A stretch of 64,000 bases of DNA from an uncultured Clostridia bacterium (GTDB lineage: Bacteria; Bacillota; Clostridia; TANB77; CAG-508): positions 3,976 through 67,975 of the forward strand of contig CAMMZC010000003.1 in the NCBI GenBank assembly GCA_946529215.1, written 5' to 3'. A model generated the notes under the pieces. That model made no database searches and was not told the DNA's origin. It was given only the letters and a program-made list of their open reading frames with translations. Shown piece after piece: positions 19,544 to 23,341 of this stretch (position 1 is the first letter of the stretch; each line of letters starts with the position of its first letter). Made by a program: the position numbers and the translations under genes.

Positions 19544-22500
19544 TTATTCATTTATTTTTCTTATAACTATTTCATCTTTCTCTTTAATAACAAATTCATT
19601 CATTTCTTCTTTATCAATAAATTTATAATAATATTCTCCTAAAGGTAAATTTCTTGCACCTGCTTGGCCATTTTCATTGGTAGTTATTGTTATAATCTCA
19701 TCTTTATTGCTATCAAAAATCCTTATTTTTAAACCTACCTTAGGTTTATTATTTTTATCTTTAACTTGTATTGCAAATCTCCCTTTATAACGCTCTACTT
19801 TTATAACTGGATAAAAAGTTCTATTTTCGTCATCAATAGTAACTCTATATGTTGTTTCATCCATTATATAATTTCCTGTAAGACTAATTAACTTAAATAA
19901 ATACACAAATAAATAGCCATGACGCAAAGTAACATATGCTTTACCATCTCCATCTGTTACTACTTCAGTTAAATAATGTCCTTCTTTATCATAAATATAG
20001 AATGTTCCACCTTGAATTGGGTTACTTGCATCATCAACTAATGTAATAACTAGTTGATTTCTAGGATATATCAATTTAAAATTTGTTACATCTGCACCGT
20101 TAACATATACATATTTTGACATAAGTTCTTTATCCTTGTTATATTTGTCAACTAATGCGATTCTATACATTCCAACAGGAACTTTATAGTAGCTAATTTT
20201 GGCATCAGATCCAACAAATGACTGTCCTAATTTATTATCTGCACTATCATAAAGATTTACTGCATATCCTATAAGTGCATCCTCATTTAAATCAACAAAT
20301 TTTGCTTGAATTTCTCCTAAATAGCCCAGGTTCTTATTTGGAACAAATTCGCTAATATTTTGCTTTTTAACATTTAAAGCTTTAGATGTTTCTTCATCTG
20401 TCAATTCTTTGGCTATTTTAATTAATTCATTTGAAGCAAGATTTTCTGAAATTTCAATTCCAATATCTTTTAAAATTTTTTTTCTTAATTCTATAGCATC
20501 TTTCAATTGTTTTGCTTTAATCATTTCTTGTAAGATTTTGAATTGAAATAACTCATAATCTCCGACATTGTATTTTTCAAACTTTATTTTCTTAAATATT
20601 GCTTGATATTCCACACATTTTTCGTAGTTTTTAATTGCGTCCTTTGGTTTATTATTTTTGCTTTCAACTTCAGCTAATTTAGCATATATTTCGCTTAAAA
20701 AATAATCTCGTATAGCTCTACCATAAATATTATTTTCACTTATAAATTCATTATTATTTTTCACATAAGAAATAGCGTTTTTATATGCACTTGTTGCTTT
20801 TTTAAAATTAGTTTCCTTTAAACTATTTTCAGCTACTTCGTAATATTTAGTTTTCAAATCTTCTATTAATTCGTTATATTTTTCTGTTTGTTTTTTGTAG
20901 TTTTCTATTGCTTGATTTTTTTTATTTATTAAATTTTCAATTTCTTTTTTTGAACTTGTATTGTCTGGTAAAATCACAACTTTATTATTAATAACATCTA
21001 TTTCATCATCATAAAGCAAAATTAAATTTTTATACAAACCATATGTCTTATATATTTCTTCTAATTTATTAAAAGAATCAAACATAACCAAATTATAAAA
21101 TATAGGTTTTTCAAAAAGATTCTCTTTAACATAACATAGAATTTCATTATAAATACCAACAATTTCACTATAATCTTTTTCTACAAAACCAATTTTGTTG
21201 AATTTGTAATTAGCATACTTATAATAAAGGTCTATCTTGATTTCTTGTAAATCATCAAATTTTATAGAAAATTGATGATATTTAAACCATGATTTAATTG
21301 CCTTAAAATAATTATCTACAATTTTATTAAATAAACCAATATTTGTAAAATACTTAAATATTCCATATGAACTTCTAATAATAGAATATACAGCCACATC
21401 ATTTTGATTATATTTATTATTGTTTAAAGTTTTGATTATATCCGAATATATAAATATTGCTTTGTTTAAATTCTTTTTTCCCTCTTTTGTTTTTTCATCA
21501 TCAAAAAATTTTTCAGCTTCACTACAAAGTAAGTCAGCTTTAGCTAAATCTATTTCGGATTTAATAACTGTTAAATCTCTATGATTTTCAATATTTAATT
21601 CTATCTCATAAATATTATATAAAGATTTAATAGTATTTTTTGCTTTTTCAAAGTCACCACTTAATTCATAAAACTTTGATAGCTTTATTGCTAAATTCAT
21701 TGAGTAATCTATATGATTATATTCAGCCCAATCTAAATATTTTTGTATTAATTCTGCAGCTTTGCAATAATCTTCTTGTTTATTACAAAATTCTGCAAAT
21801 ATTAAAAAGGTATCTCTTTGTAAATTGTTATCTTCTTCGACTTTTATTGCTCTTTCATATGAGGCATAGATTTCTTTAACTCTATCTGGATTATTAATAT
21901 CTAAATTATATGTTTCAGCTCTTGATATTAATTCTTGTACAAATTCAGATAATTTCTTTCTTCCACTCTCCTGCTCTACTTCTATATGTACAATATCATC
22001 ATTAATTTCTTCAATATTAAGTATTTCTTTAGCAGATTCTAAGTCACCTCTTTCTAAGCATTTATACGCAGCAATTTGTTTCTTTGTAAGATTATTTTTC
22101 CCCGCTTCTTTAGAAAACTTTTTACTAAAATCAAATATTTGATTTTCTAAATTTTGAATATCTCTTTTATATTTATAATATTTCTCTGTAATTTCATCTA
22201 ATTTATTTGCTTCTTCTTTTGTATATTTTGTTTTATCAGATGATTTTAATTCCAAATATTCATCTTCAATTTTTTCAAATTTTTCTTTTAATTCAATTAA
22301 CTGCTCATTCTTAAAAAACATCGGAATTTTATCTAATACTAATATTTCCTCGCCATCTATACAAATGCTTCCATCAATTATTTCAATTGTTACATTTGAT
22401 GTTTTCATGTCATCGATTTTATTATTAATTTCATATTTAATACGATAAATATCAATATATTCACCATAGTAATGTTGCAAATTATCTCCAACATATTTAA

Positions 22501-23341
22501 TAAACTCATCTGCTTTTTTAGTTCTCTCTTTTACATCTTTTCTAACAAATGGTCTTAAATCAAGACTCTCATTTTCAATAAAATATTTATATGCATTATC
22601 AAAGTCTTTATATATTTTTTCGTCAATGTCTTTACCAACTATTAAAAATAATCCTGAACAATCTTTCAGTTGTTTTTCTGTTAGAGAAGTTATATCTTCA
22701 TTAGTAATAAAATTAAAATATACACGATGCTTTTTATATTTATCATTTATGTTCCTAATAAAATTACTAATTGCATATTTATCATTTTCTATATCTTTAT
22801 TTCCTTCAAGAAAAATAAAGTTATATTTTTTTAATTCTTCTTTTTCTAAATCTTCTTCATCAATTTTTTCAATACTATTATTTATTATTTCTTTAACCTT
22901 ATTATATAATTCTTCTTCTTCATCATATTCTTTTATTTTATTTTTAAATCCACCATTTAATACATCATTACCAAGTTTTTCTCTAAATTTAGCTACTGAA
23001 TCATCAGCATCACATTTTTTAAAGAATATAAACCTTCTTATACCTTTAACTTCTTTAGATACATCATATTCTTCAACAGTATATTCTCCTGCTCTTTTCC
23101 CAATTAGCAATATCATAACATCAGATTCTCTTAATTTTTGATTATATTGCTCTTGTTTTCTGCCTTTTACCATAGAATTATCTTCAAATTCACATTCAAA
23201 CAAATTAATCCTAATACCTTTTTCTAATAAGTCATCTTGCATTCTTCTTACTAAGTCGCCAATTTTATTTCTTTCAGTTTCAAATTCATTAATAGAAGAA
23301 GCTAAAAATATTTTTATTTCATTTTTATTATAACTTGGCAT
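19544..23341 (-). CDS. Giant multidomain protein: two DUF4062/TIR-like N-terminal modules, TPR-like helical region, three C-terminal Cna-B/SpaA-type beta-sandwich modules
   Basis: The ORF is open from the GTG at 23356, but the ATG at 23341 follows GAGG by 9 nt. N-terminus IFLASSINEFETERNKIGD...VMILLIGKRAGEYTVEEY is DUF4062-like. A second similar module is YNFIFLEGN...CSGLFLIVGKD. Mid-region is TPR-like (AAYKCLERGDLESAKEIL, SKFYELSGDFEKAKNTI). The C-terminus has ITLVDDASNPIQGGTFYIYDKEG..VTDGDGKAYVTL and IQVKDKNNKPKVGLKIRIFDSNK..TTNENGQAGARNLPLGEYYYKF. No signal peptide and no Walker A. Confidence 0.75.
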   Translation of the reverse strand: MPSYNKNEIKIFLASSINEFETERNKIGDLVRRMQDDLLEKGIRINLFECEFEDNSMVKGRKQEQYNQKLRESDVMILLIGKRAGEYTVEEYDVSKEVKGIRRFIFFKKCDADDSVAKFREKLGNDVLNGGFKNKIKEYDEEEELYNKVKEIINNSIEKIDEEDLEKEELKKYNFIFLEGNKDIENDKYAISNFIRNINDKYKKHRVYFNFITNEDITSLTEKQLKDCSGLFLIVGKDIDEKIYKDFDNAYKYFIENESLDLRPFVRKDVKERTKKADEFIKYVGDNLQHYYGEYIDIYRIKYEINNKIDDMKTSNVTIEIIDGSICIDGEEILVLDKIPMFFKNEQLIELKEKFEKIEDEYLELKSSDKTKYTKEEANKLDEITEKYYKYKRDIQNLENQIFDFSKKFSKEAGKNNLTKKQIAAYKCLERGDLESAKEILNIEEINDDIVHIEVEQESGRKKLSEFVQELISRAETYNLDINNPDRVKEIYASYERAIKVEEDNNLQRDTFLIFAEFCNKQEDYCKAAELIQKYLDWAEYNHIDYSMNLAIKLSKFYELSGDFEKAKNTIKSLYNIYEIELNIENHRDLTVIKSEIDLAKADLLCSEAEKFFDDEKTKEGKKNLNKAIFIYSDIIKTLNNNKYNQNDVAVYSIIRSSYGIFKYFTNIGLFNKIVDNYFKAIKSWFKYHQFSIKFDDLQEIKIDLYYKYANYKFNKIGFVEKDYSEIVGIYNEILCYVKENLFEKPIFYNLVMFDSFNKLEEIYKTYGLYKNLILLYDDEIDVINNKVVILPDNTSSKKEIENLINKKNQAIENYKKQTEKYNELIEDLKTKYYEVAENSLKETNFKKATSAYKNAISYVKNNNEFISENNIYGRAIRDYFLSEIYAKLAEVESKNNKPKDAIKNYEKCVEYQAIFKKIKFEKYNVGDYELFQFKILQEMIKAKQLKDAIELRKKILKDIGIEISENLASNELIKIAKELTDEETSKALNVKKQNISEFVPNKNLGYLGEIQAKFVDLNEDALIGYAVNLYDSADNKLGQSFVGSDAKISYYKVPVGMYRIALVDKYNKDKELMSKYVYVNGADVTNFKLIYPRNQLVITLVDDASNPIQGGTFYIYDKEGHYLTEVVTDGDGKAYVTLRHGYLFVYLFKLISLTGNYIMDETTYRVTIDDENRTFYPVIKVERYKGRFAIQVKDKNNKPKVGLKIRIFDSNKDEIITITTNENGQAGARNLPLGEYYYKFIDKEEMNEFVIKEKDEIVIRKINE

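Follow-up and report, generated by a model that had tools for sequence, protein, structure and literature searches.

A giant cytoplasmic-looking protein of uncultured Clostridia joins two DUF4062/TIR-like modules to a CnaB/SpaA cassette and is a probable anti-phage immune protein

The giant gene and its product

The window, a stretch of 64,000 nucleotides (nt) from contig CAMMZC010000003.1 of an uncultured Clostridia bacterium (GCA_946529215.1), carries on its minus strand a gene for a protein of 1265 amino acids (aa), here called the giant (Table 1). The gene is a single unbroken open reading frame (ORF). Its product begins with two DUF4062/TIR-like modules, continues through a small beta-hairpin, a coiled-coil stalk and a long TPR-like solenoid, and ends in three CnaB/SpaA beta-sandwich modules, which together are called the cassette and singly Ig1-Ig3. 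On the same strand, the genes of a 96-aa RyR-domain protein (RyR96) and of a 634-aa membrane protein lie upstream of the giant gene, and a rhomboid gene and a TIR_2-TPR gene lie downstream. The giant is probably a cytoplasmic anti-phage immune protein of the DUF4062/NIR class that was fused from a two-gene system. Its NADase activity, its role in defence, and the ligand and the part with which it would sense are proposed by analogy with characterised systems. Relatives found in the searches are given as loci (L-numbers) and proteins (P-numbers).

The ATG at 23341 is the start codon; all orthologs of the giant share the same Met, and a Shine-Dalgarno-like GAGG precedes it. The GTG at 23356, which the ORF lister reports, falls within the ribosome-binding site. 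Elsewhere, CnaB/SpaA modules typically belong to adhesins that Gram-positive bacteria secrete. By hydropathy and motif rules, not SignalP, the giant has no signal peptide, no transmembrane (TM) helix, and no LPXTG-like sorting motif or membrane tail. Simple sequence rules found no hydrophobic N-terminal segment, the N-terminus being polar, and the Kyte-Doolittle maximum over 19-residue windows is 1.17. The giant looks cytoplasmic, as an earlier interpretation made from the DNA letters and their translations alone (the sequence-only reading) had claimed.

Table 1. Features of the giant gene, its surroundings in the window and its counterparts in related loci (positions without an L-number are those of the window)
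Feature	Position	Strand	Basis
Giant gene, 1265 aa and stop	19544..23341	-	ORF list and translation; four compared orthologs without internal stops
GAGG, Shine-Dalgarno-like	23351..23354	-	9 nt before ATG at 23341; sequence read
Module 1 (aa 8-130), canonical DUF4062/NIR TIR-like domain, probable NADase	22952..23320	-	Pfam PF13271, hhalign
E91-Y92 codons, predicted catalytic Glu-Tyr of module 1	23066..23071	-	Alignment to Eva01
Module 2 (aa 170-312), degenerate DUF4062-like, TIR fold; D246-F247 in place of catalytic Glu-Tyr	22406..22834	-	
Small beta-sheet/hairpin (aa 319-335, VTIEIIDGSICIDGEEILV)	22337..22387	-	AF2, strands 154-170 of model
Coiled-coil stalk (aa 340-414)	22100..22324	-	AF2, long helices 181-202 and 210-249 of model
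TPR-like alpha-solenoid (aa ~420-1000), fast-evolving	20342..22084	-	
CnaB-type module 1, Ig1 (aa 1008-1092)	20066..20320	-	AF2, Foldseek, PDB profile; K/E/N to F/L/Y
CnaB/SpaA-type module 2, Ig2 (aa 1093-1183), most variable region	19793..20065	-	Pfam SpaA, AF2; triad to L/L/V
CnaB-type module 3, Ig3 (aa 1184-1265)	19547..19792	-	AF2, sub-cut-off Pfam; triad to V/F/E
634-aa membrane protein, 3-4 TM helices, GxGxxG Rossmann-like segment, C-terminal RyR-like domain	23384..25288	-	Sequence, hydropathy
RyR96, 96-aa RyR-domain protein, abuts 634-aa gene	25289..25579	-	Pfam RyR E 6.4e-35
Deletion scars of three genes (~200-aa TM protein, ~370-aa protein, sigma-like protein)	19254..19521	-	tblastn, sequence read
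691-aa TIR_2-TPR protein	16500..18575	-	Pfam TIR_2 E 5.9e-12, TPR_12 E 3.4e-79
tRNA-Met, one edge of variable region	16322-16397	+	
6S RNA, other edge of variable region, with DUF1189 gene	26983-27186	-	
SbcD-like (Metallophos, 371 aa) and SbcC-like (772 aa) pair	27428-30880	-	
634-type gene, then giant gene (as in window)	L004:1564-3468		
634-type gene, then giant gene (as in window)	L005:2-1750		
634-type gene, then TIR_2-NB-ARC-TPR gene	L006:5620-7383		
634-type gene, then 205-aa ThsB-like TIR gene	L022		
634-type gene, then TIR-WD40 gene	L024, L025		
P0041-type large gene, 157-aa DUF4062 gene just upstream (stop TGA-TAA, then ATG)	L006		
P0006 large gene, 149-aa DUF4062 gene 18 bp upstream	L020		
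P0007 large gene, 146-aa DUF4062 gene overlapping 3' end	L019		
~200/~370-aa gene pair	L002:13786-15517		
~200/~370-aa gene pair	L004:7656-9481		
~200/~370-aa gene pair	L005:5735-7586		
~200/~370-aa gene pair	L006:13782-15366		
~200/~370-aa gene pair	L022:2278-4126		

The DUF4062 modules, stalk and solenoid

DUF4062 is a TIR-like NADase that converts NAD+ to ADP-ribose (ADPR) and nicotinamide (10.64898/2026.05.01.722283; 10.64898/2026.06.25.731849; 10.64898/2026.09.04.749371). Swarozyc, Evangelion, NIR-Avs2, Vulcan and Vesta, all of them anti-phage systems, use it as their effector and depend on one Glu, and in four tested DUF4062 systems phage infection leads to Glu-dependent depletion of NAD+ (same 2026 preprints). 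The characterised enzymes yield linear ADPR only and act by depletion (same preprints). The catalytic Glu is E97 in KpSwz (10.64898/2026.05.01.722283) and E108 in PsAvs2 (10.64898/2026.09.04.749371), and it lies in E87-Y88 of Eva01 (10.64898/2026.06.25.731849). The giant belongs to a known kind, because DUF4062 is now established as a TIR-like NADase effector of phage defence.

The sequence-only reading had assigned two DUF4062/TIR-like modules to the N-terminus of the giant. Both modules do belong to the family, but they are not equivalent, module 1 being canonical and module 2 degenerate. Module 1 is matched by Pfam DUF4062 (PF13271) at aa 10-87 (E 4.5e-6, 27.2 bits, gathering cut-off 24.7) and aligns by hhalign with the canonical modules of the wider family (99.9%, E 1.6e-35), and a stand-alone 157-aa DUF4062 protein of L006 is 52% identical to it. 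When Eva01 (WP_000072390.1, pMW2) was aligned with module 1, with 28% identity over the core, its F11 fell on F12 and its E87-Y88 on E91-Y92 of the giant. F12 and E91-Y92 are unchanged across seven orthologs. The Glu-Tyr and aromatic motif of the family are thus present in module 1, which is canonical and probably catalytic, a predicted NADase. The giant also shows the TIR-like five-stranded parallel beta/alpha fold of the family. When the first 330 aa of the giant were compared with PDB sequences, chance antibody matches alone came up, and tblastn of module 1 against plasmids returned one Acaryochloris DUF4062 gene and missed Eva01.

Module 2 by itself had no match in Pfam. By hhalign it was related to canonical modules of the wider family (98.7%, E 3.7e-16) and to module 1 (93%). 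D246-F247 stands at the position of the catalytic Glu, and a segment of about 10 residues that canonical modules have ('CE..RKQEEYN') is missing. Module 2 is a degenerate copy. In a MAFFT alignment of both N-terminal modules, some single-module relatives fell on module 1 and others on the tail behind module 2, which would have made the alignment chimeric, and module 2 with the stalk was modelled alone. The AlphaFold2 (AF2) models cover aa 166-560 (module 2, stalk and first repeats) and aa 995-1265 (cassette). The first of them, built from a 27-row alignment, has a predicted local distance difference test score (pLDDT) of 89.5 and a predicted template modelling score (pTM) of 0.86, and shows module 2 as five beta-alpha units. 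Behind it stands a hairpin of three short strands, whose position is kept across the wider family, and then come long helices (aa 346-414) and helical repeats. The helical repeat arm of the sequence-only reading is borne out. Support for the remaining solenoid as TPR-like is moderate (hhalign 82%); TPR matches in the Pfam scan were weak throughout, and the PDB sequence search with the TPR region gave PEX5 at E 0.2 only.

Two-gene relatives and distribution

The origin of the tandem arrangement is indicated by its relatives. An exhaustive HMMER search with aa 170-1265 over 1.84 billion cluster representatives gave 885 matches in two populations. The first consists of cassette-only matches to long multi-repeat proteins. 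In the second, module 2 and the stalk are matched at the N-terminus of proteins of 330-1180 aa, which come from metagenome-assembled genomes of Lachnospiraceae and Oscillospiraceae and are annotated in the source as 'TPR repeat protein' or 'hypothetical'. These proteins are of two types, namely a canonical type with T-x-E-E-F and a module-2-like type, in many members of which the Glu is replaced by K, Q, N, R, S or D. In every module-2-type relative with readable context, the large gene is in contact with a small gene for a canonical DUF4062 protein (L006, L019 and L020 in Table 1), and all three of the small proteins carry IKIFLASS...RKQ-EY...T-x-EEY. As single-module relatives encode module 1 as a separate adjacent gene, the giant is a two-gene system in fused form. 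The joining of the two genes provides strong evidence that small enzyme and large scaffold act together in a single complex.

The sequence-only reading had proposed a search for the same domain order in other genomes, and this search showed the order to be very rare. Full-length orthologs form five 90%-identity clusters among 5.8 billion clusters (67-100% identity), and the order without module 1 recurs in one distant lineage, represented by P0041, the fragment P0149 and the partial locus L007. Among GTDB species representatives there is no close ortholog, only a lineage of 35% identity. No relative of the giant was found on IMG/VR contigs; therefore, it is probably not phage-borne. The hosts are uncultured Clostridia of gut or rumen type, in which defence systems are poorly explored.

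Two further proteins show other rare pairings of DUF4062 with beta-sandwich modules or with a second TIR-like domain. P0221 (498 aa, high GC) combines a canonical DUF4062 domain, a hydrophobic segment and CarboxypepD_reg/SpaA-like modules, and P0225 (302 aa) is a tandem of TIR_2 and a DUF4062-like domain.

The CnaB/SpaA cassette

The three C-terminal beta-sandwich modules named in the sequence-only reading are all real, because the AF2 model, Foldseek and the sequence profile agree. Pfam SpaA matches aa 1098-1175 (E 7.1e-9, 36.1 bits, cut-off 23.1), and a CarboxypepD_reg/SdrD_B match at aa 1192-1247 lies under the cut-off. The AF2 model of aa 995-1265 (8-row alignment, mean pLDDT 79) consists of three consecutive all-beta modules with the CnaB/prealbumin-like fold. 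Its top Foldseek match in the PDB is 6fwv, the thioester-isopeptide-ester (TIE) adhesin of B. anthracis (E 1.5e-21), and further matches are BcpA, SpaA, GBS52, the SdrD B domains and other pilins. The sequence profile of the cassette also finds 6fwv in the PDB (E 4.2e-21). From the C-terminal 266 aa, a word-indexed search for homologs recovered only two fragments. The literature searched held nothing directly relevant on cytoplasmic CnaB domains or on Ig-like sensors in defence proteins.

In sortase-anchored thioester adhesins from related Clostridia, the stalk begins with three modules that are collinear with the cassette and 36-41% identical to it (E up to 5e-47). Its identity is 39-41% to P0046 and P0047, 35-37% to P0042 and P0076, and 35% to the cassette of P0041. 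P0042, P0046 and P0047, the best of the cassette-only matches, possess a signal peptide and, at the N-terminus, a thioester-type domain, along with numerous SpaA repeats and LPQTGG with a membrane tail. According to the alignment, the Lys/Glu/Asn isopeptide triad is found in every module present of seven of the eight adhesin relatives. In the same columns of the giant, Lys is replaced in three of three modules and Glu likewise (F-L-Y, L-L-V and V-F-E), and the isopeptide Lys is kept in no module of seven cytoplasmic family members. The cross-link chemistry has been lost and the adhesin fold kept, as expected for a cassette that works inside the cell. The cassette is not decaying, the ratio of nonsynonymous to synonymous substitution rates (dN/dS) being 0.16-0.39 per module. 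P0076 (311 aa) is an N-terminal membrane anchor with the three-module cassette alone; it has no LPXTG and carries S, I and L in the Lys columns, and may represent a stage between adhesin stalks and the cytoplasmic cassette.

It is highly improbable that the giant is an adhesin secreted by non-classical export, with its N-terminal domains acting outside the cell. The secreted habit of other CnaB/SpaA proteins and the rhomboid protease gene downstream would agree with such a role. However, the giant is not an adhesin by its own features, because signal peptide, sorting signal and isopeptide triads, which provide tensile strength, are absent; TM helices are missing as well, and the N-terminus has the fold of an NAD+-dependent enzyme. 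The giant was rejected as a rhombosortase substrate, since it has no GlyGly-CTERM and the rhomboid scores 37.6 bits in the rhombosortase model against a cut-off of 84; the rhomboid gene behaves as a conserved flanking gene.

Integrated decoy domains are known from plant NLRs. By analogy, the cassette might mimic a host adhesin stalk that serves as a putative phage receptor, so that freshly synthesised receptor-binding proteins of the phage bind the cytoplasmic copy and trigger the NADase. This explanation is unlikely. The collinearity with LPXTG thioester adhesins speaks in its favour, and so does the fact that the cassette is no closer to its counterpart in the distant relative P0041 than to these adhesins. 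The use of the same module type in phage baseplate and tail-fibre proteins is a further point for it. However, phage use of such an adhesin as a receptor is without support, the window holds no adhesin gene, and a copy of 36-41% identity with replaced core residues would be a poor mimic.

When the cassette model was compared with BFVD, it matched baseplate J-like, baseplate wedge and tail-collar fibre proteins of gut siphophages at E of about 1e-14 to 1e-16. These proteins are 15-20% identical to the cassette, and the same module type is used at phage tail tips.

Conservation and selection

The whole giant gene is under purifying selection. Its dN/dS is 0.24-0.30 in every pairwise comparison, and the four compared orthologs are intact. 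Identity among the five ortholog clusters is 80-86% in the two N-terminal modules and the stalk, about 60% in the solenoid and 52% in Ig2. The stalk and module 2 have the lowest dN/dS, with 0.09-0.14 in two of three comparisons (stalk 0.10-0.14). It ranges from about 0.1 to 0.37 in the effector and stalk part and is highest in the solenoid and Ig2 (0.27-0.39; Ig2 0.37-0.39). Against the distant relative P0041, Ig3 is the best conserved region with 59% identity, while the other regions show 26-40%. The sequence-only reading had proposed that the beta-sandwich modules serve for target recognition. On these sequence comparisons, the conservation of Ig3 would suit docking or assembly no less well than a variable sensor.

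A gene pair stands after the giant gene, or after the small TIR gene in L022, in five loci (Table 1). Its first member has about 190-240 aa, mostly with an N-terminal TM helix, and its second is a soluble protein of about 350-380 aa; neither has a Pfam match, and identity across the deepest split is 47-59%. It is possible, although only tentatively so, that the CnaB modules serve for rigid spacing, oligomerisation or docking and that the TPR solenoid does the recognising. The cassette might then bind the ~200-aa and ~370-aa proteins of this pair. Besides the conservation of Ig3, such a role is favoured by the place of the pair directly downstream of the giant gene in four of five loci with cassette-bearing giants, and by the use of CnaB modules as stalk elements in the adhesin relatives. 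In contrast, Ig2 is the most variable region and has the highest dN/dS, the pair also follows the small TIR gene in L022, where there is no cassette, and it is deleted in the window, yet the cassette there is still under purifying selection.

Between the window and L004, the synonymous rate (dS) is 0.72-0.95 in Ig1-Ig2 (19793-20320, minus strand) and 0.22-0.27 in the two N-terminal modules. This uneven dS hints at recombination or replacement within the C-terminal arm between close relatives.

RyR genes and their pairing with TIR-family genes

The minus-strand order is RyR96, the 634-aa gene (gap of 0 bp), the giant gene (42 bp), the rhomboid gene (311 bp) and the TIR_2-TPR gene. Terminator-like sites are found solely at the two ends of this stretch, and none lies between RyR96, the 634-aa gene and the giant gene. 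RyR96 matches RyR repeats in the PDB at E 1e-61 to 1e-65. The 386/387-aa Abi_2-RyR proteins of L006 and L004 have a C-terminal domain to which it is 81-89% identical, and it is the remnant of the Abi_2-RyR fusion that is intact in these two loci; 352 bp separate its ORF from the DUF1189 gene. The 634-aa protein is a candidate partner or effector of the giant. Its RyR assignment is weak (Pfam E 0.007; PDB E 1.6e-4), and it retains the H-x-x-W motif and the RRHP His.

Homologs of the 634-aa protein, which are 42-100% identical, were located by a metagenome scan in the window, in L004-L006 and in L022-L027. In all seven loci where the next gene is visible, this gene encodes a TIR-superfamily protein: the giant, TIR_2-NB-ARC-TPR, a small ThsB-like TIR or TIR-WD40 (Table 1). 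Thoeris consists of a ThsB TIR sensor and an effector with a signal-binding domain, and type II effectors carry TM helices and a Macro domain. The pairing of 634-type and TIR-superfamily genes looks Thoeris-like and so far undescribed, the putative signal-binding domain being RyR. The locus of the giant would resemble Thoeris in that a TIR-superfamily gene for a putative sensor stands beside that of a membrane protein with a weakly assigned RyR domain, a type of domain known to bind ADPR-derived signals. It differs in that the enzyme is DUF4062 and not a canonical TIR, that the candidate domain for ligand binding is RyR and not SLOG or Macro, and that the giant also occurs without RyR genes. 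To our knowledge, RyR domains have been tied to cyclic ADPR (cADPR) signals only as phage counter-defence sponges or hydrolases.

L022 and L005 show a cassette swap at one position. A 205-aa TIR_2/ThsB-like gene (L022:1610-2224) replaces the 1265-aa giant (L005:1792-5589), and the flanks, namely the 634-type gene upstream and the 242-aa and 377-aa genes downstream, are 95-99% identical.

These observations raise the possibility of Thoeris-like signalling. The giant would occupy the position of ThsB, an ADPR-type product would be read by the RyR domain of the 634-aa protein and, in relatives, by Abi_2(HEPN)-RyR, and the RyR effectors would kill instead of, or besides, NAD+ depletion. This explanation is tentative. 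It is plausible because RyR (ryanodine-receptor Repeat12-like) domains bind 2'/3' cADPR and cADPR, in one case cleaving to ADPR, and hold ADPR (PMC13232231; 10.64898/2026.06.04.730250). The invariable TIR-superfamily neighbour, the small TIR in the place of the giant in L022, the close spacing of the three genes without an intervening terminator-like site and the His and Trp motifs kept in the 634-aa protein also argue for it. However, the giant is present without RyR genes in L002 and L003, so that it can stand alone, and the two-gene DUF4062 relatives L019 and L020 have none either. The formation of linear ADPR only by the characterised DUF4062 enzymes, the weak RyR call on the 634-aa protein, the Thr that RyR96 has in the alignment at the position of the HP-motif His of RyR1, and the sample of only seven loci count against it as well. 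A wider version of this explanation is slightly more doubtful. According to it, the giant would be the sensor and signal maker of an undescribed Thoeris-like pathway, in which an ADPR-type molecule made by a DUF4062 or TIR enzyme is read by RyR effectors, the TM-Rossmann membrane protein and the Abi_2/HEPN protein, as the host's own receptors. The cassette would be one interchangeable sensor head, the other heads being none, WD40 or STAND-TPR.

Losses in the locus

In the 311 bp that separate the giant gene from the rhomboid gene, short fragments of three genes are preserved in order; these genes stand after the giant in L002, L004, L005 and L006. Residues 35-59 of L004_211, an N-terminal piece of the ~200-aa TM protein, are matched at 19521-19447 (76%), and residues 357-373 of L004_373, the final 17 codons of the ~370-aa protein, at 19467-19417 (82%). 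Both ends of the sigma-like gene (L002_104) are found at 19404-19254. The RyR96 remnant and these fragments indicate that parts of the locus were lost here, while the giant and 634-aa genes were kept intact.

Comparison with known systems

Among the characterised systems, Swarozyc KpSwz (10.64898/2026.05.01.722283) is similar to the giant in being a single cytoplasmic protein with a DUF4062 TIR-like domain and a catalytic Glu, as in module 1. Its cryo-EM structure comprises a TIR-like 'flower', a small intertwining beta-sheet and a helical stalk (10.64898/2026.05.01.722283). The order in the giant is the same, namely a five-stranded beta/alpha domain, a small antiparallel beta-sheet and a helical stalk in the AF2 model, and then a proposed C-terminal recognition region. 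The working model set out below is taken over from KpSwz, with a C-terminal part that binds a phage protein and stalks that reposition the heads. KpSwz, which was compared by description, carries a single DUF4062 domain, and it binds the phage portal through a small winged-helix AUX domain. In contrast, the giant has a catalytic and a degenerate module, a TPR-like solenoid of about 580 aa and three CnaB modules. As its C-terminal 850 aa are TPR-like helices and three beta-sandwiches, without a winged-helix/helix-turn-helix AUX domain, the giant is not a Swarozyc.

Vulcan and NIR-Avs2 (10.64898/2026.09.04.749371) share with the giant an N-terminal DUF4062 domain on an alpha-solenoid, with which Vulcan and Avs2 sense a phage protein. 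Both are single-gene systems that cause abortive infection by NAD+ depletion (10.64898/2026.09.04.749371), and the same logic is proposed for the giant. Vulcan (WP_050009967.1), known here by description, is a direct NIR-HEAT fusion, whereas the repeats of the giant look TPR-like and are accompanied by a second pseudo-NIR module, a coiled coil and the beta-sandwich cassette. Membership of the giant in STAND/Avs was rejected because it lacks the NTPase. The protein has no Walker A motif (GxxxxGK[ST]) and no NB-ARC, NACHT or AAA match in Pfam, and a coiled coil stands where the central P-loop NTPase of Avs would be. Evangelion Eva01 (10.64898/2026.06.25.731849) aligns with the giant in the core DUF4062 motifs, but it has 324 aa and a short AUX region and is plasmid-borne. 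The TIE adhesins and pilins (6fwv) share the fold and sequence of the three C-terminal modules; unlike them, the giant has no signal peptide, thioester domain, LPXTG or membrane tail, and its isopeptide Lys and Glu are replaced.

In the papers searched for these terms, the three 2026 DUF4062 preprints and the RyDEP paper, there is no mention of the domain order of the giant, of beta-sandwich/Ig-like modules, of tandem DUF4062 or of host RyR effectors. The sequence-only reading, too, was not aware of a description of the arrangement. Three features stand out, namely the fused pair of a catalytic and a pseudo-TIR module, the adhesin-derived cassette without isopeptide residues, and the link between RyR and TIR genes.

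Proposed mechanism

A working model for the giant as a cytoplasmic immune protein can be put forward. Module 1, with E91-Y92 at its active site, would be the catalytic NADase. Module 2 would be a TIR-fold pseudo-enzyme that, with the beta-hairpin and the coiled-coil stalk, forms a dimerising and autoinhibiting base, and the TPR-like solenoid with the three CnaB modules would be the arm for ligand binding or assembly. In the uninfected cell, the TIR-like heads would be inactive as a stalk-mediated oligomer. A phage component may dock on the C-terminal TPR/CnaB arm, upon which the stalks would re-align and the heads oligomerise. Module 1 would then hydrolyse NAD+, and the outcome would be abortive infection through NAD+ depletion; the RyR-domain proteins encoded upstream could possibly be activated as well.

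The model draws on the DUF4062 match and the conserved motif of module 1, on the order of module 2 and stalk shared with KpSwz, on the fusion, on the absence of export signals and of an NTPase, and on the contrast between a conserved effector and stalk and a fast-evolving solenoid and Ig2. The setting also speaks for it, since the low-GC stretch around the giant gene includes the TIR_2-TPR gene and RyR-domain genes, and relatives adjoin Abi_2, TIR-NB-ARC-TPR, TIR and toxin-antitoxin genes. Several points weigh against this model. Scans of the giant with PADLOC, NCBIfam and PHROGs gave nothing meaningful, the sole PADLOC match being a chance CorA-like one in the coiled coil. Module 1 lies outside the regions covered by the AF2 models. 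The evidence for a defence island is modest, and one family member stands among ordinary genes. With the Abi_2 domain and three downstream genes gone, the system in the window could be partly disabled. A cassette that served purely as a variable sensor would be at odds with the conservation of Ig3.

The losses in the locus and the lack of matches in defence-model libraries would also suit a non-immune protein, either one that scaffolds or regulates NAD+ metabolism or one left to decay after the locus was dismantled. Such a role is quite unlikely. The giant itself is intact and under purifying selection despite the losses, its 3.8-kb ORF being unbroken in a genome of about 24% GC and its four orthologs being intact with the dN/dS given above for each pair. 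The invariant catalytic motif and the defence type of the associated genes also speak against it.

If the immune reading is true, it widens the range of DUF4062/NIR proteins by a natural fusion of a catalytic and a pseudo-TIR module that exists alongside unfused two-gene versions. The fused and unfused versions would be a ready system for studying how TIR-like heads are held off and switched on. The recruitment of an adhesin stalk cassette into an intracellular immune protein would be a clean case of domain exaptation, in which isopeptide cross-links were lost once tensile strength ceased to matter, and the cassette would be a candidate for a new type of phage-recognition or docking module. 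Bacterial RyR domains would become host-side receptors for NAD-derived signals, linking the phage RyR sponges described in 2026 to a host pathway.

Other features of the window

The giant sits in a stretch of low GC content (0.225-0.248 across 18-30 kb), the flanks having 0.26-0.30. No att-like direct repeats were found flanking the island, and the variable region is bounded by the tRNA-Met gene on one side and by the 6S RNA and DUF1189 genes on the other. The SbcD-like and SbcC-like pair was considered as Lamassu-like and rejected, because its LmuB match is weak (PADLOC, E 6.5e-14) and it is a typical SbcD-SbcC pair, probably housekeeping. The 691-aa protein has an N-terminal region of about 160 aa without a family match, followed by TIR_2 and seven TPR_12 units, and PADLOC gives it weak ThsB/SAVED-TIR matches. 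It is a putative second TIR-family sensor in the same island. The TPR part of its gene contains a 126-nt periodic DNA repeat in five copies, which are 64-71% identical.

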